NCBI GenBank assembly: GCA_049297495.1
Contig: JBAQUL010000015.1
Location: forward strand, 128,609-192,608
Length of the DNA: 64,000 nucleotides
Source: Candidatus Moraniibacteriota bacterium
Lineage (GTDB): Bacteria; Patescibacteriota; Minisyncoccia; Moranbacterales; UBA2206
Reading direction: 5' to 3'
The translations under genes were made by a program, and so were the position numbers. Position 1 is the first letter of the stretch, and each line of letters opens with the position of its first letter. The notes under the pieces were generated by a model. The model did not search any database, had not been told where the DNA came from, and saw nothing but the letters and a program-made list of their open reading frames with translations. Below, in pieces: positions 1-62,582 of this stretch.

Positions 1-464
1 ACGCGATCTTGCGTGGGCATTTTCTTGGTTGTCTTATAATCAATGATTTCAAACCCATCGGGCGTGCGGTCAATCCGGTCAATAATTCCGGAAATAATAT
101 GCTTATTATCCTTCTCTCCGATTTCAATTTGAAAACGTGATTCAAGGTTGACAATATTGAAATCCGCCGGATTATTTTGCCGGAAATAATCCTGGATAAT
201 TTTCACGCCTTGCACAAAAGCAGCACGCTCCTCTTCGGGCGAAGCGAACACGGCCGGATTCCAAGAATTAGAAAAAAACTCCATCGCTTGTTCCAGAGTA
301 GGGGAGAGAATACCTGGTGTGTGGATGAATTTCATTGTCGAATGCAAAATTGTCCCAAATACCGCTTCTTTGGATTTAGGCGTCTTAATTTTGTCGATTT
401 GCTGATATTTATACTTCAATGGGCAGCTTTTATAGGTATCTAGAGCGGAATATGAAATGCGCAT
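1..464 (-). CDS. PD-(D/E)XK nuclease superfamily protein, Cas4/RecB-like, N-terminal part (gene runs off window start)
   Basis: Minus-strand ORF starting ATG at 464 with no stop before position 1. It is absent from the ORF track because it is truncated. Hand translation gives MRISYSALDTYKSCPLKYKYQQIDKIKTPKSKEAVFGTILHSTMKF...GIIDRIDRTPDGFEIIDYKTTKK. These are the N-terminal Cys, the GxIDRID and IIDYKT (D...DYK) motifs typical of RecB-family/Cas4 nucleases. Confidence 0.5.
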   Translation of the reverse strand, partial: MRISYSALDTYKSCPLKYKYQQIDKIKTPKSKEAVFGTILHSTMKFIHTPGILSPTLEQAMEFFSNSWNPAVFASPEEERAAFVQGVKIIQDYFRQNNPADFNIVNLESRFQIEIGEKDNKHIISGIIDRIDRTPDGFEIIDYKTTKKMPTQDR

Positions 465-573
465 AATTTTTTTTAATGCTTAATGTGGGCATTATAGCAC
501 GGCTGGTCAAATAGGGCGAATGGTTGTAGCATAAGAATAGAGGTAGTGGCGGTTAATCTTTTATAAAAATCCT

Positions 574-3500
574 ATGGACAGTAAGAAATGTTTATTTGAT
601 GAGAAGTTTACAAATCTCTATGAATTAAGTAAAACTTTGAAATTCGAGTTAAGGCCGGTTGGGGAAAAAGTCGAATATGTTGATCAAAAAACAGGAGAAA
701 TTCGACAAGTCACAATGACAGAAAAAATGTTACTGGAAAACGGAGTTTTTAATAATGACAAAATTATTCAAGAGAAATATCAAAAGACAAAACCATATTT
801 TGATCGTTTGCATCGAGAGTTTGTTAGAGAATCTTTGGCGGGTGTTTCATTGACGAGTTTGGAGGAATATGAATCCATCCTGGGTGATTGGAAAAATGAC
901 AAGAAAAATAAAGAAAAGCAAAAGAGATTGCAGTTGAGAGAAAGTGGATTAAGAAAACAGGTGGTTAAATTTTTTGATAAAAAGACAACTGAGTGGGCAG
1001 ATAAAAAATATAAACACTTAAAGTTTAAAAATAAAAATACAGACTTATTTTTTGAAGAAGGAATTTTCGCTTTGCTGAAAGAAAAATATGGGGAAGAAAA
1101 AGATGCAAAGATAAGAAATGAAGAAACTGGAAAAGTAATTTCTATTTTTGATTCTTGGAAAGGATTCACCGGATATTTTACCAAATTTCAAGAAACAAGG
1201 AAGAACTTTTACAAAAATGATGGCACAAACACTGCTCTGGCTACTAGAATTATTAATCAAAATTTAAAAAGATTTGTTGATAATTTGCAAGACTTTAAAA
1301 AAGCTAAAGAAAAAATTGATTTTTCCGAGGTAAGAAATAATTTTAAAAAATTAGCAGATGAGGTTTTTTCTTTAGCTTTTTATGATAAATGTCTATTGCA
1401 AACAGATATTGATTTCTATAATCAATTTATCGGAGGAAAAGTGCTTGATAATGGCAAGAAGTTACGAGGAATCAATGAATTGATAAATGAATATCGTCAA
1501 AAAAACAAAGGAGAAAAAATAAACTTTCTTAAATTATTGGATAAACAAATTTTAAGTGAGAAAGAGGAATTTATTGATGAAATTGCTGATGACGTACACC
1601 TGCTGGATGTGCTAAAACTATTTTTGAATAAATCTGAAGAAAAAATTGCCATAATCAAGAATCTGCTTGATGATTTTACTAAAAATAATCAGAACTACGA
1701 TCTTTACAAGGTTTATATTTCTAGGGAGGCTCTTAATACTATTTCCAGAAAATGGACAAATGAAACTGAGCGATTCGAAAAAGCATTGTATGATTCTATG
1801 AAAACAGATAAGCCGCTAGGCTTAAGCTATGACAAAAAAGAAAATACCTATAAATTTCCTGACTTTATCGCGATTGCATATATTAAAAATGCGCTAGCTA
1901 CAGTTTCTAGTGATGAGAATTTTTGGAAAGAAAGATATTATAAAACTGAAGAAAATCCATGGGGATTTTTAGATGAGCATACTAGTAGCTGGAGTCAATT
2001 CTTGGATGTATTTATGTGTGAATTTGAATGGTTACTTAAAAAAGCGACTAACGGAGAAGGTAAGGAGGATAAAGTGATCGGTTTCGATATTTTTAAAAAA
2101 GATTTTGAAAGCTTAATTGGTAAACCTAATTTTTCAGTAAATCAAGAATCTAAAATAATCATTAAAAATTTTGCCGATTCCATTTTAACCATTTACCAGA
2201 TGGCGAAATACTTTGCATTAGAGAAAAAAAGAAGTTGGGTAGATACATATGAATTGGATGATTTCTATACCAATCCAGAAAGAGGCTATTTATTATTTTA
2301 TAGAGATGCCTACGAAGAAATTGTTCAAGTATATAATAAGTTGCGAAATTATCTTACAAAAAAGCCATTTAGTGAAGAAAAATGGAAACTGAATTTTGGA
2401 AATTCAACCCTAGCTAATGGCTGGGATAAAAATAAAGAAAGCGATAACTATACTGTGATATTAGAGAAAGGAGGGAGATATTATCTGGGGGTAATGAATA
2501 GGAGAAGCAATAAGATATTTTCGGATGAAAATAAAAAAATATTTGAAGATGGCTTGTCCGATGGAGGTTACAGAAAAGTTGTTTATAAACTCCTGCCAGG
2601 ACCAAACAAGATGTTACCTAAAGTTTTTTTTAGTGATTCAAGAATAGGATTTTTCAATCCTTCTGAAGAAATACTAAATATTAGAAATCATTCTAGCCAT
2701 ACAAAAGGAGGAGCTCCACAAAAAGGCTTTGAAAAGAAAGAGTTTAATCTAAAAGATTGCCATAGGTTGATAAATTTTTTCAAGAGCTCTTTAGAGAAAC
2801 ATGAAGAATGGAGAGATTTTAATTTTTTATTTTCTGATACGATAGCATATAGAGATAGCAATGATTTTTATAGAGAAGTGGAGCGGGGTGGCTATAAGAT
2901 TTCTTTCCAGGATATTTCAGAAAAATATATCCAAGAAAAAAATAGAAATGGGGAGTTGTATTTATTTGAAATTCATAGTCAAGATTGGAATTTAAAAGAT
3001 GGGAAGAAAAAAGCAAATACAAAAAATTTGCATACTCTTTATTTTGAAAATATTTTTTCTGCGAAAAACATGGCTAAAAATTTCCCAATAAAACTTAACG
3101 GTCAAGCAGAATTATTTTTTAGACCGAAGACAGTAGCAGAAAAATTAGCAAAAAAGGTAGTCAATGGAAAAGAAGTTATCGATCATAAACGATATAACCA
3201 AGATAAAATATTTTTTCATTGTCCAATAACAGTAAATAGGGCGACCGGGAATGTGTATAATTTTAATGCGAAAGTTAATAATTTTCTGGCTGATAATTCA
3301 GGTATGAATATTATCGGCGTTGATCGCGGAGAAAAGCATTTAGCCTATTACTCCGTGATTAAACAGGATGGGGAAGTTATTGAAAGTGGAAGCTTGAATT
3401 CTGTGAACAATATAAATTATGGTGAAAAACTAGAAACAAGAGCGAGAGATAGGGAGCGGGCGCGAAAAGATTGGCAGGGCGTTGAAGATATAAAAAATCT

Positions 3501-4491
3501 AAAGAAAGGCTACATTTCTCAAGTTATTAGAAAATTGGCAGATTTAGCAATTAAGCATAATGCGATTATTGTTTTTGAAGATTTAAATATGCGCTTCAAG
3601 CAAATTCGTGGCGGAATCGAAAAAAGCATCTATCAGCAACTAGAAAAAGCCTTAATCGATAAACTTAGTTTTTTGGTGGATAAGGGCGAGAAAAATCCAG
3701 AGCAAGCCGGACATTTGTTGAAAGCCTATCAATTGGTTGCTCCTTTTGAAACTTTTAAGGATATGGGAAAACAAACGGGAATTATTTTCTACACTCAAGC
3801 AAGCTATACTTCAAAAATTGATCCGGTAACCGGCTGGAGACCAAATTTATATCTAAAGAACACTAATTCGAAAACTAATAAAGAAAATATCCTTAAATTT
3901 GACAAGATAAAATTCAACAAAGAAAAGAACAGATTTGAATTTACCTATGATTTGAGAAAATTCGTAGTTCAAAAAGAATATCCCAAGAAAACAAAATGGA
4001 CATTGTGTAGTTGCGTAGAAAGATTTAGATGGAATAGGGAATTGAATAATAATAAAGGGGGATATGTTAGTTATGAGAATTTTACAATTGAATTTGCTAA
4101 ATTATTCTCTGATGCTTCGATTGATGTTAGTGAAAATATTTTAGAGCAAATTGAAAAAATGGATGCGGTAAAAAATGCAAAGTTTTTCAGAGATTTTATT
4201 TTTAATTTTAGTCTTTTGTGCCAAATAAGGAACACGCAAAAAGAAAAAGAGGGAAATGATAATGATTTCATCTTTTCTCCGGTTGAACCATTTTTCGACA
4301 GTCGCAAGGATAATGGAAATAATTTGCCCAAGAATGGTGATGACAACGGGGCATATAATATTGCTCGAAAAGGAATTGTGATTTTGGAAAAAATTTCTGA
4401 ATTTTATAGCAAAAATAAAACTTGCGATAAAATGGGCTGGGGAGAATTATATATCTCGCATACGGATTGGGATAATTTCGCACAAAAATAA
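574..4491 (+). CDS. cas12a: Type V-A CRISPR effector Cas12a (Cpf1), 1305 aa
   Basis: The N-terminus FTNLYELSKTLKFELRPVG is the conserved WED start. LNFGNSTLANGWDKNKE...YYLGVMN is present. RuvC-I is IGVDRGEKHLAYYSV, RuvC-II is IVFEDLNMRFKQIRGGIEKSIYQQLEKALIDKL, and RuvC-III/Nuc is DDNGAYNIARKG. A Cas12a-type CRISPR array lies immediately downstream on the same strand. Confidence 0.95.
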   Translation: MDSKKCLFDEKFTNLYELSKTLKFELRPVGEKVEYVDQKTGEIRQVTMTEKMLLENGVFNNDKIIQEKYQKTKPYFDRLHREFVRESLAGVSLTSLEEYESILGDWKNDKKNKEKQKRLQLRESGLRKQVVKFFDKKTTEWADKKYKHLKFKNKNTDLFFEEGIFALLKEKYGEEKDAKIRNEETGKVISIFDSWKGFTGYFTKFQETRKNFYKNDGTNTALATRIINQNLKRFVDNLQDFKKAKEKIDFSEVRNNFKKLADEVFSLAFYDKCLLQTDIDFYNQFIGGKVLDNGKKLRGINELINEYRQKNKGEKINFLKLLDKQILSEKEEFIDEIADDVHLLDVLKLFLNKSEEKIAIIKNLLDDFTKNNQNYDLYKVYISREALNTISRKWTNETERFEKALYDSMKTDKPLGLSYDKKENTYKFPDFIAIAYIKNALATVSSDENFWKERYYKTEENPWGFLDEHTSSWSQFLDVFMCEFEWLLKKATNGEGKEDKVIGFDIFKKDFESLIGKPNFSVNQESKIIIKNFADSILTIYQMAKYFALEKKRSWVDTYELDDFYTNPERGYLLFYRDAYEEIVQVYNKLRNYLTKKPFSEEKWKLNFGNSTLANGWDKNKESDNYTVILEKGGRYYLGVMNRRSNKIFSDENKKIFEDGLSDGGYRKVVYKLLPGPNKMLPKVFFSDSRIGFFNPSEEILNIRNHSSHTKGGAPQKGFEKKEFNLKDCHRLINFFKSSLEKHEEWRDFNFLFSDTIAYRDSNDFYREVERGGYKISFQDISEKYIQEKNRNGELYLFEIHSQDWNLKDGKKKANTKNLHTLYFENIFSAKNMAKNFPIKLNGQAELFFRPKTVAEKLAKKVVNGKEVIDHKRYNQDKIFFHCPITVNRATGNVYNFNAKVNNFLADNSGMNIIGVDRGEKHLAYYSVIKQDGEVIESGSLNSVNNINYGEKLETRARDRERARKDWQGVEDIKNLKKGYISQVIRKLADLAIKHNAIIVFEDLNMRFKQIRGGIEKSIYQQLEKALIDKLSFLVDKGEKNPEQAGHLLKAYQLVAPFETFKDMGKQTGIIFYTQASYTSKIDPVTGWRPNLYLKNTNSKTNKENILKFDKIKFNKEKNRFEFTYDLRKFVVQKEYPKKTKWTLCSCVERFRWNRELNNNKGGYVSYENFTIEFAKLFSDASIDVSENILEQIEKMDAVKNAKFFRDFIFNFSLLCQIRNTQKEKEGNDNDFIFSPVEPFFDSRKDNGNNLPKNGDDNGAYNIARKGIVILEKISEFYSKNKTCDKMGWGELYISHTDWDNFAQK

Positions 4492-4811
4492 AGAAAATAA
4501 AAGAAAATAAAATCTTTACAAATAATGATAGTGTGATAATATATGGAGTATGCGAGGGGTGCGAAAAGAAAATTATCCGTTATGAGCATCCCGTGCAAGA
4601 GGAACAGCCAGTTATTTTTTTCGGCTAGGTAAGAACTTTAAAAAATTAAATAAAGGTGTAAATCTTTATGCGGGTATTAAATTAGACATTATATTGTATT
4701 ATGCAAAACCTCAGTTTTCATAAAACTGAAAAAGCTTATCTGAGCCAAAAAGTCGTAGCTAGCCTTAGGGCGCTATTTGTATCTTTTTGGCTTAGATTAA
4801 ACATTTCGAGA
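4492..4811 (+). promoter_or_regulatory. Putative CRISPR leader, AT-rich, between cas12a stop and first repeat
   Basis: 320 bp AT-rich non-coding stretch directly upstream of repeat 1. The degenerate terminal repeat is at the far end of the array, placing the leader here. It contains short direct repeats (aagaaaataaa x2) and a hairpin cagttttcataaaactg. Confidence 0.5.
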
Positions 4812-5480
4812 GTCTAATACCAATATAAGATTTCTACTTTTGTAGATACCAGATATACTAAGTGGCTTAATATAGTCTAATGCCAATATGAGATTTCTAC
4901 TTTTGTAGATGGACATTTACATATCTGGTTAAGGTGTGTCTAATACCAATATAGGATTTCTACTTTTGTAGATACCAAGGGAGGCGTTACTCACGCCTTT
5001 AGTCGAATACCAATATAAGATTTCTACTTTTGTAGATCTAGCTTCTTGTATAAGAGGGTTTTCAGTCTAATGCCAATATAATATTTCTACTTTTGTAGAT
5101 AGCATTGGCGTTAATTATTAACCAAAACGTCTAATACCAATATAAGATTTCTACTTTTGTAGATAGTGGCTTAATAAAATAATATGCTTTGGGGTCTAAT
5201 ACCAATATAAGATTTCTACTTTCGTAGATTCCTTCCAAGTAGTTGTTCTATTTGAGAATAAAATCAACATAATATTTCTACTTTTGTAGATCCGTCTGAG
5301 TTTAACCAGTCCTACCAGTCTAATACCAATATAAGATTTCTACTTTTGTAGATTTAGTCCTCCAGGAGAGGAAACCTTTGAGTCTAATACCAATATAAGA
5401 TTTCTACTTTTGTAGATATCGTATCTTGGCGGACTTCCTTGATAGTCTAATGCCTATATAATATTTCTACTTTCCTAGAT
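4812..5480 (+). CRISPR. CRISPR array, 11 repeats of 36 nt with 10 spacers of 26-29 nt, Cas12a-type repeat
   Basis: Consensus repeat is GTCTAATACCAATATAAGATTTCTACTTTTGTAGAT. Repeat starts are 4812, 4875, 4938, 5002, 5065, 5129, 5194, 5256, 5318, 5382 and 5445. Spacer lengths are 27, 27, 28, 27, 28, 29, 26, 26, 28 and 27. The 3' handle UCUACUUUUGUAGAU is the Cas12a crRNA stem-loop in + orientation. Repeat 8 (5256..5291) is degenerate in its 5' half. Terminal repeat 11 (5445..5480) is degenerate, including the stem change GTAGAT to CTAGAT. Confidence 0.95.
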
Positions 5481-5590
5481 GCTACAATAACCCGTTTCTA
5501 GGGCCTTTTTAGTAATTTTTCAGCAAGATTTGACAGATTATCCAAAGAGGCTATACTTAAAGCATACTAAATTGGTATGTATTAACAGTT

Positions 5591-5974
5591 ATGCAATTCT
5601 CAACTAAAGCTGAATATGGTTTGCGAGCGATGGTTGCTTTGGCGCGCGCCTATCCGGCCCAAAAAAACATCACCGAAATTTCTCAGGAGGAAAATATTTC
5701 TGCCAAATATCTGGAAACACTAATCGGAAAGTTGCGGAAAAATAATTTGGTCAAAAGCCAGAAAGGCAAAAGCGGGGGATATACCCTCATTAAAAATCCA
5801 AAAAATATTTCCGCCGGAGAAATCATTGAAATTATGGAAGGACCGATTGTTTCCAAGTGTGATGGGAGCAATTGTATGAAAGCAAAAGTTTGCGCGTCCA
5901 GTCTCGTTTGGAACAAACTCGCGTTTCAAATTAAAAAAACTTTATTTGCAATTAAATTAAGTGAATTAATATAG
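5591..5974 (+). CDS. Rrf2-family transcriptional regulator (IscR-like)
   Basis: MQFSTKAEYGLRAMVALA...LVKSQKGKSGGYTL matches the Rrf2 wHTH consensus. The C-terminal Cx5Cx5C (CDGSNCMKAKVC) resembles the IscR cluster ligands. It lies upstream of iscS-iscU. Confidence 0.8.
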   Translation: MQFSTKAEYGLRAMVALARAYPAQKNITEISQEENISAKYLETLIGKLRKNNLVKSQKGKSGGYTLIKNPKNISAGEIIEIMEGPIVSKCDGSNCMKAKVCASSLVWNKLAFQIKKTLFAIKLSELI

Positions 5975-6010
5975 TGTAGGTACTTGCGCATTTGCCTAAA
6001 AAACAAACCG

Positions 6011-6149
6011 TGTCATCCTGAGCGAAGTCTGTACTCAGACGCAGTCGAAGGATCTACCAACCGTAACCCATAGCTTTCTATTTAATAGCAGGGCTTACGA
6101 TAATGGAAAGTAGATCCTTCGACTTCGCTCCGATTTGCTCAGGATGACA
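6011..6149. repeat. 139-nt imperfect inverted-repeat (long hairpin) element in the rrf2-iscS intergenic region
   Basis: The left arm is tgtcatcctgagc + gaag ... gtcgaaggatcta (6011..6056). The right arm is tagatccttcgac + cttc ... gctcaggatgaca (6111..6149). The inner stem is a perfect 13 bp and the outer stem about 17 bp with asymmetric internal loops. The central loop is 54 nt. Confidence 0.4.
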
Positions 6150-6174
6150 AATTTAATTCAAGTGTGTAAATCCT

Positions 6175-7413
6175 ATGAATAAACTTATGGCTAACAAAAA
6201 AATATATCTCGATTACGCAGCAACAACTCCAGTCGATGCAGAGGTGCTAAAAACAATGCTGCCATATTTCAGTGATGAATTTGGTAATGCCTCGTCTCTT
6301 CATTCGTTTGGACGAAACGCGGCCGATGCGGTTACTACAGCCAGAGAAAACTTAGCTAATTTTTTCAAGTGTAATGAAGAAGAAATTATTTTCACTAGTG
6401 GAGCAACTGAATCGAATAATCTGGCTATTAAAGGTGTCTTGCGCGCGTACAATAAAAATAAAATAAACAAAGGAAAGATTCCACATATCATCACGACTGT
6501 TTTTGAGCATAGTTGCGTTTTGAAAACTTGTCAAAAAATGGAAAAAGAGGGGAGCGCGGAGGTGACTTATCTTCCGGTCTATGTCGATGGAATTATTAAG
6601 GTATCTGACCTGGAAAAAGCCCTTAAGGAAAACACGATACTCATGTCTATCATGTATGTAAATAATGAAATTGGCACCGTGCAACCAATCGCGCAAATTG
6701 GAAAACTTTTGGCACACCTTAACGAAAAGCGAGCAGAAAAAATAATTTTCCACACTGATGCGACACAAGCTGTGGCCTATTTCGACACAAACGTCAAAAG
6801 ATTAGGCGCTGATTTGCTTTCGATGTCGGCGCATAAGATCTATGGCCCCAAGGGTGTTGGTATATTATATGTCAAAAAAGGCACCAAAATCACCCAGATT
6901 CAAGACGGCGGAGCACAAGAATTTGCTCTGCGTGCCGGAACGCTCAATTCAACTGGCATTATTGGTCTGGGTAAAGCCATTGAGGTACTCGAGAAAAGCA
7001 AGAAAAAAGAAGTCAAAAAAATCAAAGAATTGCGAGATTATCTAATCAAGAAAGTCTTAAAAGAAATTCCTAATGTTCGCTTGAACGGCTCACGTTCAAA
7101 AAGATCGCCCAATAATGCCAATTTTAGCTTTGCGGACGTGGAAGGGGAAAGTCTTCTTTTATACCTCGACGCTGAAGGCATCGCCGTTTCCACTGGTTCC
7201 GCCTGTTCCTCTGGCTCGCTTAGTCCATCCCACGTCCTTCTTGCCCTTGGCCTAAAACCAGAACAAGCCCACGGATCACTGCGTGTGACTCTCGGGAAAT
7301 ATACCGCAAAAAAAGAGCTAACCATTTTCGTCTCGAAGCTAAAAAAAGTTTTGGAAAAACTGCGAAAAGTTTCCGGAGAAATTTTGAAAGAATATTATTC
7401 CAAGAAAAAATAA
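6175..7413 (+). CDS. iscS: Cysteine desulfurase (IscS/NifS family)
   Basis: The PLP-lysine motif SAHKIYGPKGVGILYV and the active-site Cys loop STGSACSSGSLSPSHVLLALG are present. Confidence 0.9.
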   Translation: MNKLMANKKIYLDYAATTPVDAEVLKTMLPYFSDEFGNASSLHSFGRNAADAVTTARENLANFFKCNEEEIIFTSGATESNNLAIKGVLRAYNKNKINKGKIPHIITTVFEHSCVLKTCQKMEKEGSAEVTYLPVYVDGIIKVSDLEKALKENTILMSIMYVNNEIGTVQPIAQIGKLLAHLNEKRAEKIIFHTDATQAVAYFDTNVKRLGADLLSMSAHKIYGPKGVGILYVKKGTKITQIQDGGAQEFALRAGTLNSTGIIGLGKAIEVLEKSKKKEVKKIKELRDYLIKKVLKEIPNVRLNGSRSKRSPNNANFSFADVEGESLLLYLDAEGIAVSTGSACSSGSLSPSHVLLALGLKPEQAHGSLRVTLGKYTAKKELTIFVSKLKKVLEKLRKVSGEILKEYYSKKK

Positions 7414-31699: not shown

Positions 31700-31810
31700 A
31701 ATATAGAGCTACAAAGACCTGTATTCCGAACTGTCGCCGGACGGCGGCGTGGCTGGGACAACCAGCATAGGAACGTGGTTGGAAATAGCCCCTTTTGGGG
31801 TTATTTTTTA
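31700..31810 (+). ncRNA. Candidate small RNA, promoter-like upstream and intrinsic terminator at 3' end
   Basis: Putative -35 TTGCGC (31676..31681), 17-nt spacer and -10 TAATAT (31699..31704). A GC-rich body (gtcgccggacggcggcgtggctggg...) ends in hairpin gcccc-tttt-ggggt plus a T-run (31786..31810). No ORF on either strand. Confidence 0.3.
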
Positions 31811-32437
31811 TTATCTAAAATTCCATTCGTCCTGAATATATTTTTCAATGATCTTTTTATAAATCACAGAATCGGCTTTATCTTTTTGATATGACCTATG
31901 AATTGCACCTGCAACCATATCCGCCATCTGAATCAAAGCGTCGCTCTTTGAATCAACGAGTTTGCAGTTTTGCAATATCTTTCGATCTTTTCCGTTCAAT
32001 TCTTTTCTAAGATAGGAAATAAAGTTTCTCCTAAATGTGCGATCTCCACTTCCATCGATTCTGATTCTTGCATCCACGATAGTTTCGTTACTGTGCTTTA
32101 GCATCATCTTGATTATATAGCTATAAAAAGAATTTTTGTTACTTTTTAATTCTGGGCTATAAAGCAGATTTTTATCGACTACCACGCATCTTATTCTAAA
32201 CTTATGTTTCTTAATGCATTCTAAAAATTTTACCCTATTTTCATCTTTTGATTTGTGGAATTTAAACTCCACATCATCTCGTTCAAATAACTCTCTTCTT
32301 AATTCTTTTATCGAAATAGCTGTTTTTTCCGCTTCTAGATTGTCATCAAAAATGACCGCACTGATAATGAAAAATCGACTGGATCCTTTATCGAATTTAA
32401 ATCCAGCGCAACCCGAATCATCAATAAAAACTAACAT
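31811..32437 (-). CDS. DUF3800-domain protein
   Basis: N-terminal FIDDSG and C-terminal LIQMADMVAGAI match the DUF3800 (PF12686) termini. Confidence 0.6.
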   Translation of the reverse strand: MLVFIDDSGCAGFKFDKGSSRFFIISAVIFDDNLEAEKTAISIKELRRELFERDDVEFKFHKSKDENRVKFLECIKKHKFRIRCVVVDKNLLYSPELKSNKNSFYSYIIKMMLKHSNETIVDARIRIDGSGDRTFRRNFISYLRKELNGKDRKILQNCKLVDSKSDALIQMADMVAGAIHRSYQKDKADSVIYKKIIEKYIQDEWNFR

Positions 32438-37135: not shown

Positions 37136-39490
37136 TTATTTAAGTTCATACTTCTCACTTGCCTTAGCGTACAAGTTTTTTTGAAATCCAAAAAAGATTT
37201 TTCGAATTTGATCAACATCACCCAATGATTGCTCAGCATTAGCAATTGCATTGTATTTCAAATTTAACAGCATTGGTAATTTTTCCTCATCCAATTCGTC
37301 AACACCATTTTCTTCATATTTTGAAAGCACAAAATTTAAAAAGTTTTTCTGTTCATTGCCGACATTAGCTAGGATTTTTTCTTTTGATTGCTCTACTCTT
37401 TGCACGCGGGAAATCGTTGGTGTGAGAAATGAAATATAGACCAAAACGTCGAACAGATCACTATTTTCCGCGTCAATCATTTTTTGCAATGTTTCCAGCT
37501 CATCTTTGCCATAACCCATTTCTGCGATTTTATCCAAAAATACTTTGCGCGATGCAGGGTTTGACCAAATCACGCGAAGTTCATCTTCAGTTTTGAAAAA
37601 TTCCGGCATGGCGCCAAAGAGATTATTCATAAATTCCTCAATTGAAATCGGCTTACCATCTGCGCTCCAAAAAGAAGTCGAGATCATATGTTGAATCTCG
37701 CGCTCTTTTCCATCACGCAATTTTATTCTTAGCTTTTTTTGTGGCTCAATTCTGGCATCACGAAGTATTTCAGCGCCAGTTTCTTTGGATGCCATTTTGT
37801 AGCCCTCGCTCTGTTTTTCAGCTTTAATTTCCTCAATTGGTTCTCCGTCCCACTCTTTGTCAGCAAAGTGATGATAGGCATCGACAAAATCCAAAATCGT
37901 AAAAAATTCTTTACCCTCAAAAAGTCTCGTTCCCCTGCCAATGATTTGCTTAAATTCAATCATGGAATTGACCGGGCGCATTAGCACAATATTTCTGATA
38001 TTTCGTGCGTCCACTCCGGTGGAAAGCTTTTGCGAAGTGGTGAGAATTGTCGGAATGGTTTTTTCGTTATCCTGAAACTCGCGCAAGAATTGCTCGCCGC
38101 GAAATCCGTCATTGGCCGTCACTCGCACGCAATAATTCGGATCCTTGCTTTCCTTCATCTGATTGACCAAATCACGCACCGCCAGCGCATGATCTTGGTT
38201 GGCGCAAAAAATGATTGTTTTTTCGTTTTGATTAATTTCGGAAAGCACAACACGAACTCGCTTGGCTTCGCGTTCTTTGATAATTATGATTTTATTAAAA
38301 TCTGGCTCTTCATAGATTTTCCCTTCTTCCACTTCACCTTCAATGATTTGATCGTCTGAAGTGTAAACATAATCATCGAGAGTTGTCTTGATCCGCTTAA
38401 CCTTGAAGGGCGTGAGAAATCCATCATTTACGCCTTCTTTCAAAGAATAAATATACACCGGCTCGCCAAAATATTGATAGGTATCAACATTGTCTTTGCG
38501 TTTTGGCGTGGCAGTGAGACCGAGTTGCACCGCTGGTGAAAAATATTCTAAAATCCCCCGCCAATTACTTTCGTCATTCGCACCACCACGATGACATTCA
38601 TCAATGATAATAAAATCAAAAAAATCTGCTGGATATTCTCCAAAATATGGCGTACCATTTTGGCCGCCTTGCAGTGAGCTAGCCGAACCTGTCATAAAAG
38701 TTTGAAAAATCGTGAAATAGACCGAGCCACTCATCGGAACTCCGCCTTTTTTTCTAATATCAAGCGGATTGATCCGCACCAGTGCATCTTCGGAAAAAGC
38801 GGAAAAAGCATTAAAAGCTTGATCGGCTAAAATATTTCTGTCAGCCAAAAACAAAATCCGCGGCCGACGCTCCCCGTCCCGCTTCAGGTTCCATCTAGTT
38901 TGAAAAAGCTTCCAGGCAATTTGAAAAGCAATGAATGTTTTTCCTGTTCCAGTCGCCAGTGTCAAAAGAATGCGCTTTTTTTCTTCTGCAATTGCATCAA
39001 GCGCTCGCTCCACGGCTAGCTCCTGATAGTATCTTGGCTTCTTGCCAGTTCCGCCATCTTCAAACGGAACAGCATTGAATTTTTCTTTCCATTCATTTTG
39101 ATCTGAGAAAGTTTTGTGCCAAAGTTCGTCTGGCGTGGGAAAATCAGAAATATTTCCTTCTTGCCCATTTTTCATCGAGATCTGATAGATTTCTTTTCCA
39201 TTGGTCGCAAAGGTATACTCGATCTGCAATTTTTTGGCATAGGCCTTGGCCTGTGCCACCCCTTCCGTTGTCTCCAAATTTTCCGCCTTCGCTTCAATCA
39301 CGCCAATCTTACGATTACGATAAACTAAAATATAGTCGGCAATTTCCGGCTTGGCGCGCAGTCCACCGACTTGAATCCGACCTTCTGTAATGCGAAATTC
39401 ACGCAGAACTTTTGAGCCTTCCACTTCGCCCCAACCACTAGCCTTGAGCTTTGGGTCAATATATTCCGCCCTGGTTTCTGATTCGTTCAT
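37136..39490 (-). CDS. hsdR: Type I restriction enzyme R subunit (HsdR, EcoEI-like)
   Basis: N-terminal nuclease region SETRAEYIDPKLKASGW...VIEAK. SF2 helicase motifs LATGTGKT, DECHRG, GLTATP and QIIGRGTR. Long C-terminal EcoEI_R_C-like tail. Confidence 0.9.
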   Translation of the reverse strand: MNESETRAEYIDPKLKASGWGEVEGSKVLREFRITEGRIQVGGLRAKPEIADYILVYRNRKIGVIEAKAENLETTEGVAQAKAYAKKLQIEYTFATNGKEIYQISMKNGQEGNISDFPTPDELWHKTFSDQNEWKEKFNAVPFEDGGTGKKPRYYQELAVERALDAIAEEKKRILLTLATGTGKTFIAFQIAWKLFQTRWNLKRDGERRPRILFLADRNILADQAFNAFSAFSEDALVRINPLDIRKKGGVPMSGSVYFTIFQTFMTGSASSLQGGQNGTPYFGEYPADFFDFIIIDECHRGGANDESNWRGILEYFSPAVQLGLTATPKRKDNVDTYQYFGEPVYIYSLKEGVNDGFLTPFKVKRIKTTLDDYVYTSDDQIIEGEVEEGKIYEEPDFNKIIIIKEREAKRVRVVLSEINQNEKTIIFCANQDHALAVRDLVNQMKESKDPNYCVRVTANDGFRGEQFLREFQDNEKTIPTILTTSQKLSTGVDARNIRNIVLMRPVNSMIEFKQIIGRGTRLFEGKEFFTILDFVDAYHHFADKEWDGEPIEEIKAEKQSEGYKMASKETGAEILRDARIEPQKKLRIKLRDGKEREIQHMISTSFWSADGKPISIEEFMNNLFGAMPEFFKTEDELRVIWSNPASRKVFLDKIAEMGYGKDELETLQKMIDAENSDLFDVLVYISFLTPTISRVQRVEQSKEKILANVGNEQKNFLNFVLSKYEENGVDELDEEKLPMLLNLKYNAIANAEQSLGDVDQIRKIFFGFQKNLYAKASEKYELK

Positions 39491-39492
39491 AA

Positions 39493-39681
39493 TTATTTTC
39501 TACCGTAACGTTTTTCGATTTCTCCTTTTGCCAGCTCCCTTCCTGACCATCGACCAAAGCGCGCCCCGCAATCATTACAATCAATTTCACTGACCCCATC
39601 GTAACGCTCTGGACTGTTGTAGTCATATTCGACCATAACTATGTTTTTGCTTCCGCATTTTTTGCATTTTTCATTGTCCAT
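39493..39681 (-). CDS. Small zinc-ribbon protein
   Basis: 62 aa with CKKCGS...CNDCGA (CxxC...CxxC). Start is 4 nt after the fic stop. Confidence 0.4.
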   Translation of the reverse strand: MDNEKCKKCGSKNIVMVEYDYNSPERYDGVSEIDCNDCGARFGRWSGRELAKGEIEKRYGRK

Positions 39682-39684
39682 TTT

Positions 39685-40878
39685 TTATTTTTTAATATTT
39701 AAAGACACAGGAATAAAACTATTTTTTTCCAAGATATAAACAACTCCTCGTAACAGATAGTTGTTTGCAAATCCTACAGTATATATTCGTCCATTCTCCT
39801 TAAGAGGAACGAGCATATGTTTGTCCTTTAGTCGTTTTAAAATACGTGATCGTTGAACAGATGATTCTTGACCAATAATTTTTTCCAAATCAGAAGATTT
39901 GATACACATATCCCTGCTTTTCACCAACGTTGAAAGGATTTCATGTTCGCGTTTTGTAATATGCTCACGCTCAAGGGCATGTAGAAGCACAGGCAGTAAA
40001 ATAGTATTGGTAATGTAATTTAGATTTAATAATTTATCTATTTTCTCTATTTCTACGCGTAACCCTTCAAGCACATATAGGCACCACTGCAATGTCTTTT
40101 CTTTTTCTCCACTATCAGCTAACGTGAGCATTTCATAATATCTCTCCCTGTCCATGCAAAATATTGCTGTTGGATTCAATATGCGCCCACTTTTTACTTG
40201 AAATCCTTGTTTAATCAAAAGGGCGTATGTAAACATTCTAACCAATCTACCATTTCCATTATCAAACGGATGGATCCAAGCCATTCGATGATGTGACATT
40301 GCAATTGCCAGTAAATGATATTGCTCATCAAGAGGTTGATTGATAAAATTTATCAATTCTTCAAAGTACTCTGGAACTTTTATTGCTTCAGGCGGAATAT
40401 GATTTGATCGTTTGATCGTAACATTTATCGGGCGTAGCATTCCGGGATACTTTGATCCTTCACCCTCGGGAGGTGGCATAAGTCCATCCACTATAATCTT
40501 ATGGATTTCCGATATCAAGGCACGATCAAATTTAGTATTGTTTTTTATATTCTTCTCAATAAAGTCAATTGCTTTTTCAATATTATATATTTCTTTTAAC
40601 CCCTCGTCTTTTCCTTTTTTGGATGGATCTTCAATAATTTTTTCGACAAATTCTGCCAAGGTTGTATTATTACCTTCAATTCGCGCGGAGCCAAGACTTT
40701 CTAGCATTTGAAATATGTCTTTTAACTGAAAGAAAATATATGGAGGAACTGGCCCTCCGAGCTTTTTTACACGTAGCTTTTCAAGCTCGATAATAGTATT
40801 AGCAAGTTTACTGCCCCATTTGGGGTCATAGAGCTCGAGCGGAATATCCTTAAATGTTGAGTTATTTACACTTTTCAT
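39685..40878 (-). CDS. fic: Fic/DOC family protein (putative AMPylase) in RM operon
   Basis: Canonical HPFDNGNGRLVRM (HxFx(D/E)GNGRxxR) and N-terminal inhibitory motif SARIEGN ((S/T)xxxE(G/N)). Confidence 0.85.
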   Translation of the reverse strand: MKSVNNSTFKDIPLELYDPKWGSKLANTIIELEKLRVKKLGGPVPPYIFFQLKDIFQMLESLGSARIEGNNTTLAEFVEKIIEDPSKKGKDEGLKEIYNIEKAIDFIEKNIKNNTKFDRALISEIHKIIVDGLMPPPEGEGSKYPGMLRPINVTIKRSNHIPPEAIKVPEYFEELINFINQPLDEQYHLLAIAMSHHRMAWIHPFDNGNGRLVRMFTYALLIKQGFQVKSGRILNPTAIFCMDRERYYEMLTLADSGEKEKTLQWCLYVLEGLRVEIEKIDKLLNLNYITNTILLPVLLHALEREHITKREHEILSTLVKSRDMCIKSSDLEKIIGQESSVQRSRILKRLKDKHMLVPLKENGRIYTVGFANNYLLRGVVYILEKNSFIPVSLNIKK

Positions 40879-40990
40879 TATGATTATTTAACATTATATG
40901 CCTAATTTTATCTCATATAAGGGATTTTGTCAAGTATCTATTTTTTAGTTAATTAACATTATCCTGGATCCTGATTTAACAAGCCCTCTC

Positions 40991-42160
40991 TCATAACTCC
41001 CCGTTAAAAGCCTTCTTCAAAACGGACTTTTTCAACTCCTCCAAATCAGCCAGTTTTTGGCGATAATTCGCTTCCAGTTTTTTAGTCTCCGCCGAAAGCG
41101 CATCAAGTTTTTTGACGATGGATTTTTGGTCGACTAATGGTGGGGCTGGAATTGGATAGTTTTTTAGCTTCTGCCCGTTGATATTCGCCTGATTTACACT
41201 TGAGATAACAACCGAATTTCCATGTTCCTTTGCCTCATTACTATTCAGAAAATAATTCAAATAATCAGCATCCAATAATTTTTCCTTTCTATGGATTCGG
41301 ATTAGATAGCCAGCAAAAATCGCAGGCATTTCATTTTTGTAGATTGCTGTTTTCCCTACCAACTCTGGACTATTTGTACGATTAAACAATACGTCGTTAT
41401 ATTTCAATAGATATTTTTCTATTTCCTGTTTATCGTTAGAGTACTTAAGATCATCCCAGTTCAGCTTGCCATTTTGAATATTGCCCATTCGCAATACTGG
41501 CACTCGCCCTGCCTTTTTGGATTTTGAAGAAGATCCATATTCGACTCTTTCGCACAACTCTCCCAGCAATTTTACGCCCCATTTTTTCCTAGAATTATCC
41601 AAAATATTTCGCAAAGACAAATCAAAAAGCTCTTTGGAATTTTGCAGATTTTTTTCCGCATTGGCTTTCGCCTTCGCAATCCCTTCAAAAACCTCATCCA
41701 AAATTTTGACGATGCGGCGTTGTTCGGGGAGAGGTGGAAAAGATATTTCTAAATTTTCAAATTCTTCTTTGTTTAGGTGAGGTATAGCAGATCCTGTTCT
41801 TGATTTTGTAAAGTTTTCTCTGTGCGTTATTAAAAAATGCAAAAGATATTTCGGATTCAATAAATCTTTCTGATATTTAACAATCCCCATCGTTGAAGCT
41901 AATGCTCCCTCCAATCCTGTAAACATTTCGCCAGAATTTGATCCATCCATGATAATGATAATATCCTCTTTTTTTACCCAAACAGATGATGGACACTTTT
42001 CTGAAGCAAATTTTGGCTCTTCTGTTTTGCGAACAACTTTTGCAGTCAAATATGGCTTATTACTTTTCGATACAAAAACAGTAGGCTTTTTGCCCTTCAC
42101 TAAATCACAAACCTCTCTGAGTTTTTTTGTTTGCCATGTCATATTTATTTTTCGAAACAA
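40991..42160 (-). CDS. hsdS: Type I restriction-modification specificity subunit (HsdS)
   Basis: Two target-recognition halves separated by conserved PPLPEQRRIVKILDEVFE, and a C-terminal conserved helix (LEELKKSVLKKAF). Confidence 0.85.
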   Translation of the reverse strand: MFRKINMTWQTKKLREVCDLVKGKKPTVFVSKSNKPYLTAKVVRKTEEPKFASEKCPSSVWVKKEDIIIIMDGSNSGEMFTGLEGALASTMGIVKYQKDLLNPKYLLHFLITHRENFTKSRTGSAIPHLNKEEFENLEISFPPLPEQRRIVKILDEVFEGIAKAKANAEKNLQNSKELFDLSLRNILDNSRKKWGVKLLGELCERVEYGSSSKSKKAGRVPVLRMGNIQNGKLNWDDLKYSNDKQEIEKYLLKYNDVLFNRTNSPELVGKTAIYKNEMPAIFAGYLIRIHRKEKLLDADYLNYFLNSNEAKEHGNSVVISSVNQANINGQKLKNYPIPAPPLVDQKSIVKKLDALSAETKKLEANYRQKLADLEELKKSVLKKAFNGEL

Positions 42161-42552
42161 GATTTAATTTTTTTCCAAAAAATCTTAAGATTAATGCCTA
42201 TACCATAAAACTCTGGGGAAAGTTTTAAGATTTCCTCCCTGTCTTCTTTTATCATGGAGAAATTAGGAAAATTAGACTCAACTTCGTCTATACCTGCTAC
42301 AGTTATTTGATCTTGTACATTTGTAATAACTTTTAGATATTCTTTGTCCTCTAAATATTTGATGGTACTAAGTAACTCGTTATTATTGAAATCTTTTAAA
42401 TTAAGCTTTTCTGCCACTGCTGGGCGCATAACTAAATTCAATATATCACCATCAGAAATGTCATAATGCAGTTGCAATACTTTTTTCCTAAATTCTGTTT
42501 TTGTTTGCCAGTTAGTTTTCATATGGTACTTGTGAATATTCAATCTTCCCAT
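42145..42552 (-). CDS. Hypothetical protein (cassette gene 4, inside RM operon)
   Basis: 135 aa. Overlaps hsdS by 16 nt and the upstream gene by 41 nt. Only a weak Rx6H pattern (RKKVLQLH). Confidence 0.4.
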   Translation of the reverse strand: MGRLNIHKYHMKTNWQTKTEFRKKVLQLHYDISDGDILNLVMRPAVAEKLNLKDFNNNELLSTIKYLEDKEYLKVITNVQDQITVAGIDEVESNFPNFSMIKEDREEILKLSPEFYGIGINLKIFWKKIKSCFEK

Positions 42553-43171
42553 TTATTTGCAATAGACGAGCATCCCTAACCTTAAGATTTTCTCCCTCAC
42601 AATCAAATAGTTTCATATTCGCCTGCCAAACAGACCGACAAAATATATTATTTTGATCATTTGTATAAGTTAAAACAACACTGATAGGAATTTCCACGTG
42701 CATCTTATTATATAATTCATCAAACTTACCTTCAAGTCTTAATTTAATTACAAACGGATCATCATTTAATGTGAGATAGAGTGGCGCTTTATTATGCCGC
42801 GCTTCGTAAATAGAAATCCCCATAGATTTCGGCTGAGAAATATTGAAAGCGACACCACGTCCAGAGTTGAAGCACTCAAATTCAATACTAAAGATCACTT
42901 CGTAAGGTTTTTCAATAATTTTTCCCGAATCTATAGACATATAGTTGTTGTCTTCTTGTTTATTTTTAACACAAAGAAAAACATCGACAGGTCTCACTAT
43001 TATACTTGGCGCCGTGCTCATCGCTGAGTCAAATTCAGATTTTTTCAACACTTTGCGAGAAATCCATAGAGAAGCAATGGCAGCCGTGCCCAATATAGAG
43101 TTAAGCACTAGGCTAAATACATCAAATAGATCGTGTTTTATTTGCACATTAATAAATGGATGCCAACTCAT
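42512..43171 (-). CDS. Hypothetical membrane-anchored protein (cassette gene 3)
   Basis: 219 aa, single N-terminal TM helix (FSLVLNSILGTAAIASLWI). No known motif. Confidence 0.4.
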   Translation of the reverse strand: MSWHPFINVQIKHDLFDVFSLVLNSILGTAAIASLWISRKVLKKSEFDSAMSTAPSIIVRPVDVFLCVKNKQEDNNYMSIDSGKIIEKPYEVIFSIEFECFNSGRGVAFNISQPKSMGISIYEARHNKAPLYLTLNDDPFVIKLRLEGKFDELYNKMHVEIPISVVLTYTNDQNNIFCRSVWQANMKLFDCEGENLKVRDARLLQINGKIEYSQVPYEN

Positions 43172-43207
43172 AATTGTTTTTTTGTAAATTATTCTTTTTT
43201 ATAGAAC

Positions 43208-44140
43208 CTACATTAGAGGTTGTTGATACTGTTTTATTTCGACAATGCGAAGCTTAGGTTTTTGATAAAGCGACTTTCTTTCAACAATCGCCTCGACAGC
43301 AACATCCTCTTCGTAAAAATCATCCAGATCTTTGGTAGTCTTGCCTTCTGGTGGATAAGCTATGAGATCCCGGTCTCTTCTTGAAAATCCATGAACTTGT
43401 AATTTTAGCGAATCACCTTTGCTGCATTGCATAGCTACAATTTTTCCTGTAAACAAATACTTCTTTCCGTCTTCATAATTCGGAAGTATTTTTTCTTCGT
43501 CACTAAGATAATTATCAAAATTATTCTCATCGACCAACGATTCATTTTTAAAATCTGGATAATTACTCACTGATATAGATTTAACTTTTTCATCCACAAA
43601 AGGTTTTAATGCCTTTTTGAACTTATGGTTTTTAATCATCTTGTGAGCCGCAATAGCATAATCCTTTTTTAGCTCATCTAGATCAGGATATCTTTTCTGT
43701 CCTTGTGCTTTTCCAAAAAAATAAGCCACAAACCCAGTCACCATATTTGATAAAACTTCTTGATCGAATGGATTTCTGGCAAAATAATCATTTATATTCC
43801 TATGTCCATTTACTAATAAATCTGATGTAAATCCAAAGAAATTCTTAGCTTCTAAAAACTGCTGCGGGCTAACAATTTCCAGAAAATTCAATAAATCCGA
43901 AATTTTTTCAAAAGGTACATGTTCTTTATTGCTTATAACAAAAATAATGATATCAACTATCAAAGAGCCTTCTCTAGTTTTACTGACACCTACTTTTATA
44001 TCTGCATCAATTTTTGTAGTTTTGAAAATCTCCCTTATGACCAAATCAAATCCAATGATCGATTCTCCGAGAGTTACTAGGTCAATTTCAGAGTCATCAA
44101 TCCCTAATCCTTTGTACTTTATAAATAGATTTGCTTTCAT
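43208..44140 (-). CDS. Hypothetical protein (cassette gene 2)
   Basis: 310 aa, no recognisable motif. Confidence 0.4.
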   Translation of the reverse strand: MKANLFIKYKGLGIDDSEIDLVTLGESIIGFDLVIREIFKTTKIDADIKVGVSKTREGSLIVDIIIFVISNKEHVPFEKISDLLNFLEIVSPQQFLEAKNFFGFTSDLLVNGHRNINDYFARNPFDQEVLSNMVTGFVAYFFGKAQGQKRYPDLDELKKDYAIAAHKMIKNHKFKKALKPFVDEKVKSISVSNYPDFKNESLVDENNFDNYLSDEEKILPNYEDGKKYLFTGKIVAMQCSKGDSLKLQVHGFSRRDRDLIAYPPEGKTTKDLDDFYEEDVAVEAIVERKSLYQKPKLRIVEIKQYQQPLM

Positions 44141-44208
44141 ATTCTTATGATTAAATTTGTGATGCAGCCTTTGAAATAAAAGGCTGCATCACCGCTGGTT
44201 TATTTTTT

Positions 44209-44847
44209 CTACGCTTTCGGAAAAAGCAGGCCGTAGACTTCCAGATAATTCAGACATTCCATAAAGACCTCTTCTTTGATTCCCCAAGTTTTTTGAGACA
44301 AAACAGATTCTTTGATTAGCTCACCGCAACTATCCAAATAGGGAGGAACGATGACCTCGATCATTGATCGGGAAACCCACACCACCTTGGTATCGCAATC
44401 TTTAGTACTCTGCAGTTCGCGAAATAAATTTAAATCATTCCTGGAATACAGAAGACCTGAGTTTCTAAATTTAACCTCAACTAATTCATAACGATACCCT
44501 TGATGAGTTATGATGAGAAAATCGGGTGATTTCCTAAAGCCTACCATAGGAACCTCCAAATAACCCTGTTTAGTTCGTAAGAAAATCTCACTTTCATTGG
44601 CATGTTTTGATTGTCTCCACTCAACTCCAAAGAAATAAAGCTCAACCCCTGATCTTCTAAACATCTGCTCAATAATAGCTTCGGCAATCCGACCCTTTAT
44701 GTCTTTATTCATCCCCTCCTTCCAGCCATCAGAATCCCAAAGAGCCATTTTTTCAGCAACTTTATTTTTGACATCATCTATCGTGCCAATAATCCAATTT
44801 TCCGCCATCTTCTCACCTCCTTTTTCTTCATTTTGTAGAATGTACAA
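44209..44847 (-). CDS. Predicted PD-(D/E)XK restriction-endonuclease-fold nuclease (cassette gene 1)
   Basis: Helix with E (GRIAEAIIEQMF), then SPDFLIITHQGYRYELVEVKFR giving PD-x13-E-V-K, the classic PD-(D/E)xK arrangement. Immediately downstream of hsdM. Confidence 0.5.
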   Translation of the reverse strand: MYILQNEEKGGEKMAENWIIGTIDDVKNKVAEKMALWDSDGWKEGMNKDIKGRIAEAIIEQMFRRSGVELYFFGVEWRQSKHANESEIFLRTKQGYLEVPMVGFRKSPDFLIITHQGYRYELVEVKFRNSGLLYSRNDLNLFRELQSTKDCDTKVVWVSRSMIEVIVPPYLDSCGELIKESVLSQKTWGIKEEVFMECLNYLEVYGLLFPKA

Positions 44848-44874
44848 TCCTCCCTAAAGCAGCTCTCTATTATA

Positions 44875-62055: not shown

Positions 62056-62126
62056 CACGGGATGTAGGAATCGAACCTACGTTAGAAGTTTTGGAGACTC
62101 CCGTACTACCACTGTACGAATCCCGC
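62056..62126 (-). tRNA. tRNA-Trp (anticodon CCA)
   Basis: Hand-folded cloverleaf. Acceptor GCGGGAT/ATCCCGT (G1-U72 wobble). D arm GTAC-AGTGGTA-GTAC. Anticodon arm GGAGT-CTCCAAA-ACTTC. T arm GTAGG-TTCGATT-CCTAC. CCA not encoded. Confidence 0.8.
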
Positions 62127-62179
62127 TTACGCTAAAGCTTCAGCGTGGCAAGGCCCGCCCATAGCTTTAGATAAGAATT

Positions 62180-62335
62180 CTACTTCATTTCCTTATGCAA
62201 TGTGTGCTTTTTGCATTTTGGACAATGTTTTTTCATTTCCAATTTTTCCTTCAGTTTTTTCTTATTTCTGGTTGTGAAATAATTGATGTTAGCGCATTCC
62301 AAGCATTTCAGCTTTGCTAAGTTTTCTCGAGACAT
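62180..62335 (-). CDS. rpmG: 50S ribosomal protein L33
   Basis: Hand translation gives [51 protein letters not shown], with the L33 zinc-ribbon Cys pairs. It is below the 60-aa cutoff, so it is not in the ORF track. Confidence 0.9.
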
Positions 62336-62388
62336 AATATTGTAAATTAATTTAACTTGATTAAACTTCTCTCTTCAATAATTCTGTG

Positions 62389-62461
62389 AGCCGTTGTCCG
62401 GAATCGGACCGGAGACCTTTTCCTTACCATGGAAATGCTCTACCGACTGAGCTACAACGGC
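62389..62461 (-). tRNA. tRNA-Thr (anticodon GGU)
   Basis: GCCGTTG-TA-GCTC-AGTCGGTA-GAGC-A-TTTCC-ATGGTAA-GGAAA-AGGTC-TCCGG-TCCGATT-CCGGA-CAACGGC-T. Confidence 0.8.
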
Positions 62462-62471
62462 ATGAATGATG

Positions 62472-62555
62472 TGGGCCGGGCAGGGTTCGAACCTGCGTAG
62501 ATACGAGATCGGCTGATTTACAGTCAGCTGCGATTGACCACTCCGCCACCGACCC
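62472..62555 (-). tRNA. tRNA-Tyr (anticodon GUA), long variable arm
   Basis: GGGTCGG...anticodon loop CTGTAAA...long extra arm...GCAGG-TTCGAAC-CCTGC-CCGGCCC-A. Confidence 0.8.
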
Positions 62556-62582
62556 ACTATTTCCTTTATTTTCATTTTTTTG

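Follow-up and report, generated by a model that had tools for sequence, protein, structure and literature searches.

The subject of this analysis is a CRISPR-Cas locus of type V-A at the left end of a 64,000-nucleotide stretch of contig JBAQUL010000015.1, hereafter called the window. The contig belongs to a metagenome-assembled genome (MAG) of 'Candidatus Moraniibacteriota', a member of the Candidate Phyla Radiation (CPR). The locus is composed of a cas12a gene and a repeat array (Table 1), and an earlier note made from the sequence alone had described it as minimal, devoid of cas1, cas2 and cas4 on the same strand, and had asked how its spacers were acquired.

The open reading frame (ORF) of the effector encodes a protein in which all five Pfam domains of Cas12a (REC1, REC2, PI, RuvC_1 and NUC) score far over their cut-offs. 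The Cas12a models of PADLOC match it with E = 0 among the matches listed, and the nearest solved structures are the Cas12a of ReChb (8qwd, E = 3e-210) and, next to it, FnCas12a. The earlier note had called the gene intact, with a complete RuvC active site, and this is the case: D917 (GVD917RGE), E1002 (VFE1002DLN) and D1257 (DD1257NGAY) are all found, as are the Nuc arginine R1219 (QIR1219NT) and the motif GWDKNK, which interacts with the protospacer-adjacent motif (PAM). The WED-region motif NLHTLYF...KLNGQAELFFRPK aligns with ReChb; processing of its own precursor CRISPR RNA (pre-crRNA) without a tracrRNA is predicted for the protein. With its REC lobe, PI, WED, RuvC and Nuc parts and the catalytic D/E/D residues, the protein is a type V-A effector, and it already bears the name Cas12a at NCBI. 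Its closest homologue, P0002, shares just 64% identity, no database sequence scores higher, and a search of IMG/VR returned no close relative. A set of shorter Cas12a-like proteins was also seen (P0243, P0245, P0249, P0251, P0252, P0305 and P0334), which measure only 470-860 residues, possess RuvC and Nuc parts and have little or no REC lobe; they lie on long contigs of up to 1.2 Mb, and may represent genes that are split, artefacts of an alternative code or effectors that have been truncated.

The array begins 320 nt past the cas12a stop codon and contains 10 spacers of 26-29 nt, in agreement with the earlier note. The 3′ end of its consensus repeat is predicted to fold into the hairpin UCUAC-UUUU-GUAGA, and we took the definition of the handle motif, UCUAC-N3-5-GUAGAU, from PMC7757703. 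Judged by sequence, the array is that of a type V-A locus, as the repeat carries this 3′ handle and the array is co-oriented with cas12a. The copies of the repeat are not uniform: eight distinct sequences occur among the 11 copies, repeats 1-5 are mutually different, and the terminal repeat is degenerate, with five changes and a broken stem. Rfam gave no match in the CRISPR locus.

To survey the adaptation genes we used all 1275 stop-to-stop ORFs of at least 30 aa from the window and 10 kb upstream of it, which were searched by tblastn and with our own hidden Markov models (HMMs). The HMMs were built from five or six type V-A Cas1, Cas2 and Cas4 sequences, and the proteins of the loci L004, L005, L007, L009 and L014 served as queries. 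In this set neither method matched a Cas1 or a Cas4, and a full-length cas2 was likewise not found. The precomputed Pfam annotation of the called genes of section 1-76,736 (9.4 kb upstream, the window and 3.3 kb past it) of the 195.5-kb contig JBAQNG010000024.1 (assembly GCA_049303595.1), which also contains the window sequence, has Cas12a as its only Cas family, and nothing Cas-like lies past the window start, where a cas4-cas1-cas2 module would have contradicted the earlier note. A weak Cas4-like match on the plus strand (L001 9259-9354, E = 0.07), located upstream of the window inside the nuclease gene, was dismissed as noise. The Cas2 queries, however, match one place, window 4515-4625, where they cover Cas2 residues 57-93 alone (E = 1e-8 to 1e-4 with three queries in tblastn, E = 5.9e-16 with the HMM). 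Hence the earlier note was right that the window holds no cas1, no cas4 and no complete cas2, and that the small downstream ORFs include no Cas1; its statement that no Cas2-like ORF exists has to be corrected, since the tail of a cas2 gene is present.

The origin of this tail can be read from a sister locus. A search for the repeat with one genome per species returned a single other locus, L009 (JAJYBE010000056.1, a 5.4-kb contig of MAG BP8.bin61). On its minus strand follow the last 495 codons of a cas12a gene, cas4 (181 aa), cas1 (337 aa) and cas2 (93 aa), then the leader and an array whose seven repeats are identical, and behind the array a small insertion, a degenerate repeat and the same Rrf2 gene that lies behind the window array. 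From position 4514 on, the window aligns with L009 through the cas2 tail (88%), the leader (93%) and the first repeat (100%); the alignment starts abruptly there, and left of 4514 there is no homology. The insertion in L009 is about 360 bp long, interrupts the array at its trailer end (about 925-1340, minus strand) and encodes a truncated GxxExxY/PDDEXK_3 protein, and the degenerate terminal repeat has been left beside Rrf2.

The 320-bp gap between cas12a and the array is thus made up of a 22-nt filler, the cas2 tail and the leader, and a 10-bp tandem duplication (AAAGAAAATA twice) extends over the filler at 4490-4509. Since a cas2 tail and a leader occupy the gap, an adaptation module was once present and has been deleted, and this loss by deletion, with a scar that is still readable, is directly supported by the sequence. 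Deleted are Cas2 residues 1-56 and the whole of cas4 and cas1. In the three nearest Cas12a relatives with a contig placement (57-64% identity; P0002 in L004, P0007 in L005 and P0025 in L007) cas4-cas1-cas2 lies directly downstream of cas12a in every case. The remnant is identical to the cas2 of L009 at 33 of 37 residues and 100 of 114 nucleotides and has neither an internal stop codon nor a frameshift. It differs from the cas2 genes of L009 and L014 by 14-15 nt, the same distance that separates these two, and of the 14 codons that have changed in it 10 did so synonymously. Because the remnant is undisrupted, equidistant and mostly synonymously changed, the deletion appears to be not ancient on the time scale of these islands. 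The earlier suggestion of an ancient loss of the module was hence correct as to the loss, the cas2 tail sitting where L009 has its cas2, but not as to the age. A match of 9 of 12 positions to a promoter within the remnant (4515-4542) was rejected as evidence because it is at chance level. As the adaptation module is dispensable in classification, its lack of cas4-cas1-cas2 leaves the assignment of the locus to type V-A unaffected.

Breaks and collapses at CRISPR loci are frequent in MAG contigs, and both Logan contigs stop within the first repeat, so that cas4-cas1-cas2 might have been lost through misassembly. The junction of cas12a, filler and truncated cas2 is, however, base-identical in the assemblies of two separate SRA runs and in the 195-kb NCBI contig, and an in-frame cas2 tail 22 nt past a stop codon is not expected from misassembly. 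We regard the chance of such an artefact as close to negligible.

Table 1. Features of the type V-A locus and its borders, in window positions.
Feature	Position	Strand	Description
PD-(D/E)XK (RecB-family) nuclease gene, 5′ part	1-464	-	left flank of the island; full protein 374 aa
Left junction	490-500		CATTATAGCAC; last sequence in common with the empty sites (L020, L021 and L022 intergenic regions)
Type V-A island	501-5527	+	5,027 bp; empty sites in L020-L024 and the P0137 contig, junction mapping, GC content
cas12a	574-4491	+	1305 aa, intact ORF; Pfam, PDB and motif evidence
Filler at the junction	4492-4513		22 nt separating the cas2 remnant from the cas12a stop; homology to L009 ends here
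cas2 remnant	4514-4628	+	codons 57-93 and stop codon TAG (4626-4628)
CRISPR leader	4629-4811	+	identity of 93.4% with L009 and of 90.7% with L014, whose leaders follow an intact cas2
CRISPR array	4812-5480	+	11 repeats (36 nt, consensus GTCTAATACCAATATAAGATTTCTACTTTTGTAGAT) and 10 spacers; same strand as cas12a
Spacer 2	4911-4937	+	near-perfect viral protospacer, L019 773-799
Island trailer	5481-5527		weakly alignable to the L009 trailer; missing from the empty sites
Right flank	5528-5590	+	Rrf2 promoter and 5′ untranslated region, common to the empty-site relatives and L009

The heterogeneity of the repeats is informative about what happened after the deletion. Spacer acquisition duplicates the leader-proximal repeat, and active arrays are hence uniform. 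Beside intact adaptation modules this is what is found, with identical repeats in 7 of 7 copies in L009 and in L014, 6 of 7 in L013, 4 of 4 in L016, 34 of 34 in L005 and 48 of 48 in L007. The window array is probably frozen and no longer growing, because it holds eight variants among 11 repeats and its first five repeats are all different, as opposed to the uniform arrays beside intact modules. Acquisition in type V-A systems needs cas1 and cas2 but not Cas12a (PMC9419969). In principle, a Cas1-Cas2(-Cas4) module at another place in this genome could still be feeding the array in trans, the more so as a stand-alone cas4-cas1-cas2-array of the same family exists without an adjacent effector (L014) and the leader is well conserved (91-93%). 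Continued acquisition would nevertheless have copied the leader-proximal repeat, which does not agree with five different sequences in repeats 1-5 nor with the uniformity of arrays beside intact modules, and contig section 1-76,736 contains no Cas1, Cas2 or Cas4 gene apart from the cas2 remnant. We therefore consider adaptation in trans very unlikely.

The substitutions that have accumulated in the repeats are not evenly placed. Repeats 1-10 carry 13 substitutions, every one of them in the loop or at positions 1-18, the section removed when the crRNA matures. None lies in the 14 positions of the stem and the AUUU, a sparing of the handle that has P = 0.0017 under uniform substitutions. This pattern fits a leader-array unit selected for crRNA production yet no longer renewed, and it bears on the question of whether the locus is in use at all. 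It has lost its adaptation module, its repeats drift and its last repeat is broken; relatives display further states of decay in the form of orphan arrays and solo repeats (L010-L012, L015), and a type I restriction-modification (R-M) system elsewhere in the window could supply defence. The locus might thus be a dead remnant, whose cas12a has merely not yet received a disabling mutation. Against this stand the intact 3.9-kb ORF with all its catalytic motifs, the avoidance of the crRNA handle by the repeat substitutions, and the leader (93%), which is better conserved than the adjoining cas2 remnant (88%). On balance we think it unlikely that the locus has fallen out of use.

Spacer 2 matches a viral sequence, L019 773-799 (IMGVR_UViG_3300025009_000215), at 26 of 27 positions, with TTTA directly before the protospacer. 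A weaker match of spacer 1 in L019 (22 of 27) has CTTA at this place. The T-rich PAM is represented by one good protospacer alone. Spacer 6 matches L019 with 19 nt at its 5′ end. Spacers 1 and 6 have 12 nt in common. In L019 a motif recurs at no fewer than four intergenic positions between small co-oriented ORFs (773-1945, within 3.2 kb), and spacers 1, 2 and 6 derive from copies or variants of it. For spacers 1, 3, 4, 8, 9 and 10 there was no exact match of 22-23 nt in IMG/VR. None of the spacers is shared with L009, L013 or L014, and none targets the window itself.

The gene at the window start had been taken in the earlier note for a truncated Cas4/RecB-like gene, but it is cut only by the window edge. 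The complete protein matches PDDEXK_1 with 127 bits and Cas_Cas4 with 22.6 bits, under the cut-off of 22.7, and has an extra DUF7376 domain. The V-A Cas4 HMM does not match the gene, the PADLOC Cas4 match to the fragment is weak (E = 4e-4), and 2411 homologues with 71-95% identity are distributed across Moranbacteria. We rejected it as a Cas4 given the sub-threshold Cas_Cas4 score, its length of 374 aa instead of about 160-200 aa and its position beside Rrf2 in CRISPR-free relatives; by its sequence it is a core housekeeping nuclease, unrelated to the CRISPR locus.

Five relatives whose nuclease copy is 88-95% identical have the nuclease gene and Rrf2 in divergent orientation, about 120 nt apart and with no CRISPR locus in between, and two further look-ups of PD-(D/E)XK homologues yielded more such empty sites and nothing else. 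Their comparison delimits the island, the right end of which lies just before ATTTGACAG (5528), the -35 region of the Rrf2 promoter (TTGACA-16-TATACT, 5530-5557, 11 of 12 matches). A scan of 400-6200 for sigma-70 promoters and terminators found sites as frequently as in shuffled sequence, this promoter being the only convincing one. The GC content is 31% in cas12a and 34% in remnant and leader, compared with 39.5% in the rest of the window. Downstream follows the Rrf2-iscS-iscU operon, so that the chromosomal neighbourhood described in the earlier note, with a core nuclease gene on the other side, is confirmed. In the Rrf2-iscS spacer (6011-6149) we noted an imperfect palindrome of about 140 nt, with arms TGTCATCCTGAGCGAA / TTTGCTCAGGATGACA and CGCAGTCGAAGGATCTAC / GTAGATCCTTCGACTTCG. 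The spacer is unalignable in L020, L021 and L023 and aligns at 67% in L022, and the palindrome looks like a small inserted hairpin element.

Remnant and leader are 91.2% identical between the window and L009, compared with 84.6% for Rrf2 and 71.7% for the 5′ end of iscS (Fisher P = 0.01 for the island segment against Rrf2). The empty-site genomes are nearer to the window genome than L009 is, with 87-89% in Rrf2 and 75-77% in iscS. Judged from these identities, the island is younger than the genomes carrying it. The idea of the earlier note that the locus is carried on a mobile element is in line with a low-GC island of 5 kb, with the emptiness of the site in five relatives and with a cas2-leader segment closer than the flanking core genes, but the island harbors no integrase or transposase gene.

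The effector tells a different story from the module behind it. In the same C-terminal region, the window Cas12a is 41% identical to that of L009, 71% to P0002 and 60% even to the 120th-ranked homologue. The cas2 tail, leader and repeat also recur in L013 and L014 at about 88-91% identity, in another genomic context and after an intact cas4-cas1-cas2. The Cas4, Cas1 and Cas2 encoded at the P0002 locus share just 45-55% identity with their counterparts in L009 and L014. A C-terminus of 41% identity beside a cas2 tail and leader of about 90% indicates different histories for cas12a and the cas2 remnant; the locus is therefore, as far as sequence comparison goes, chimeric, with the cas2 tail, leader and repeat of the L009-L014 module family and a cas12a of a different clade. 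The foreign cas12a may have arrived in the deletion event or earlier, or it may instead be L009 in which the effector changed. A search for Cas12a of the L009 type yielded mostly fragments, the best being 79% identical on a 2.5-kb contig, and did not recover the left junction of L009. In L014 no effector or cas12a remnant lies within 1.5 kb upstream of cas4. Since the same module thus occurs in related Moranbacteria in three states, with a 41%-identical Cas12a, with no effector and, in the window, with a Cas12a from another clade, the locus could capture in nature how one subtype exchanges its effectors, enabled by the shared crRNA handle and costing the adaptation genes. We put this forward tentatively, with the odds slightly on the other side. 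Evasion of anti-CRISPRs has been suggested as a role of such an exchange (PMC6452270).

The stand-alone cas4-cas1-cas2-leader-array with the repeat of the window (L014 1525-3980, and L013) has an apparent promoter of its own, and spacers 3 and 6 of the L014 array are mutually identical. An identical 32-nt stretch, TTGACAAAAACACCAAAATATGCTATGTTTTG, lies just upstream of the cas4 start, which it overlaps, in L004 (6798-6829) and L014 (about 1508-1540), between which Cas4, Cas1 and Cas2 share only 45-52% identity; a related version is seen in L009. The stretch may serve the adaptation operon as a conserved promoter or operator.

Overall, we consider it likely that a canonical type V-A system has here been reduced to an interference-only remnant. 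Its 10 spacers would have been acquired by its own Cas1-Cas2 prior to the deletion. As the sequence shows, illegitimate recombination fused the 3′ end of a cas12a gene to codon 57 of cas2, taking out cas4, cas1 and the first 56 cas2 codons and leaving the cas2 tail, leader and array. With the deletion spacer gain would have stopped, and the repeats would therefore have drifted since. Cas12a would still cut the pre-crRNA at the repeat handle, which is conserved, and use the old spacers against phages with a TTTV PAM. The question of where the spacers came from would thereby be answered: they were acquired before the acquisition genes were deleted. Several observations weigh against this interpretation. 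The survey of Cas genes spans 76.7 kb of one 195.5-kb MAG contig, and most of the MAG lies outside this section, a point that also favors adaptation in trans. The sparing of the handle has only P = 0.03 when the strongly diverged repeat at 5256 is set aside, and promoter-like matches around the locus occur at chance frequency. An exact viral match was obtained for one of seven spacers searched (spacers 1-4 and 8-10). Finally, the left junction of the sister locus does not lie on the L009 contig, and the recombination may hence have gone in either direction and in one or more events.

Further observations were made in the window and on related contigs. A type I R-M locus occupies 37136-46323 on the minus strand as the second defence locus of the window. 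Its hsdM (44875-46323) and hsdS are separated by four unannotated genes, and its hsdS and hsdR (37136-39490) by a gene with a Fic domain. A DUF3800-IX RNA of Rfam (31716-31784, plus strand, 55 bits, over the gathering score) adjoins a DUF3800 gene (31811-32437, minus strand) in surroundings of many hypothetical genes, Bro-N, GIY-YIG and a sigma-70 region-4 protein, which may be a mobile island. Four tRNA genes are clustered at 62056-62654 (minus strand). Arrays with V-A-type repeats (GTTTAGAACCAATATAAGATTTCTACTTTTGTAGAT) lie beside methylase and IceA restriction genes and without cas2 in L011 (3053-6796, minus strand) and also in L015. Three genes upstream of the L011 array, a 1246-aa ORF has no Pfam match and no tblastn similarity to Cas12a; effectors of type V-L share the V-A handle (PMC7757703). 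'Solo' copies of the 3′ 28 nt of the repeat occur outside arrays in L010 (546-573) and L012 (5596-5623), in the latter between rubrerythrin-like and glycosyltransferase-like genes, and could be array remnants or crRNA-like regulators.

To place the locus among known systems, we compared it to the canonical type V-A locus of Francisella novicida U112, which is ordered cas12a-cas4-cas1-cas2-leader-array. Both have a Cas12a with RuvC and Nuc, a 36-nt repeat ending in AUUUCUAC-UUUU-GUAGAU, and an array downstream of and co-oriented with cas12a with the leader on the cas side. One protospacer matched by the window array has TTTA on its 5′ side. Unlike the canonical locus, that of the window has lost cas4 and cas1 as well as codons 1-56 of cas2, and its repeats are heterogeneous. 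Compared to L009 and L013/L014, the 36-nt repeat is identical, the leader 91-93% and the 3′ end of cas2 87-88% identical in nucleotides, and L009 alone shares the insertion site upstream of Rrf2. L009 differs in having kept cas4-cas1-cas2, in the 41%-identical C-terminus of its Cas12a and in its uniform repeats, whereas L014, likewise with uniform repeats, lies in a different genomic context and is without an effector in the 1.5 kb upstream.

An existing catalogue (PMC12375029) includes Cas12a loci that lack Cas1, Cas2 and Cas4 and have fewer spacers, and stand-alone effector modules and module shuffling are established in CRISPR-Cas evolution (PMC6452270). The architecture is thus not unusual, and since integrase-less Cas12a loci are already described as a class, the locus is of a known kind and not a new system. 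With its cas12a, array and few spacers it resembles the integrase-less loci of 'subtype VIII' (PMC12375029) and the stand-alone effector modules (PMC6452270); the scheme of PMC12375029 would score it as having no integrase, or as 'Cas2 only' if the fragment was called. As a Cas12a with at most 64% identity to others, its effector is a candidate ortholog for effector mining in the CPR. The locus would illustrate adaptation loss and effector swap in class 2 loci, and how selection can preserve the crRNA handle while the discarded half of the repeat drifts. Unlike the catalogued integrase-less loci, it keeps a cas2-tail scar and has an intact sister locus at the same site, which point to its origin, and the case thereby adds a readable deletion scar together with the empty, complete and reduced states of one chromosomal site.

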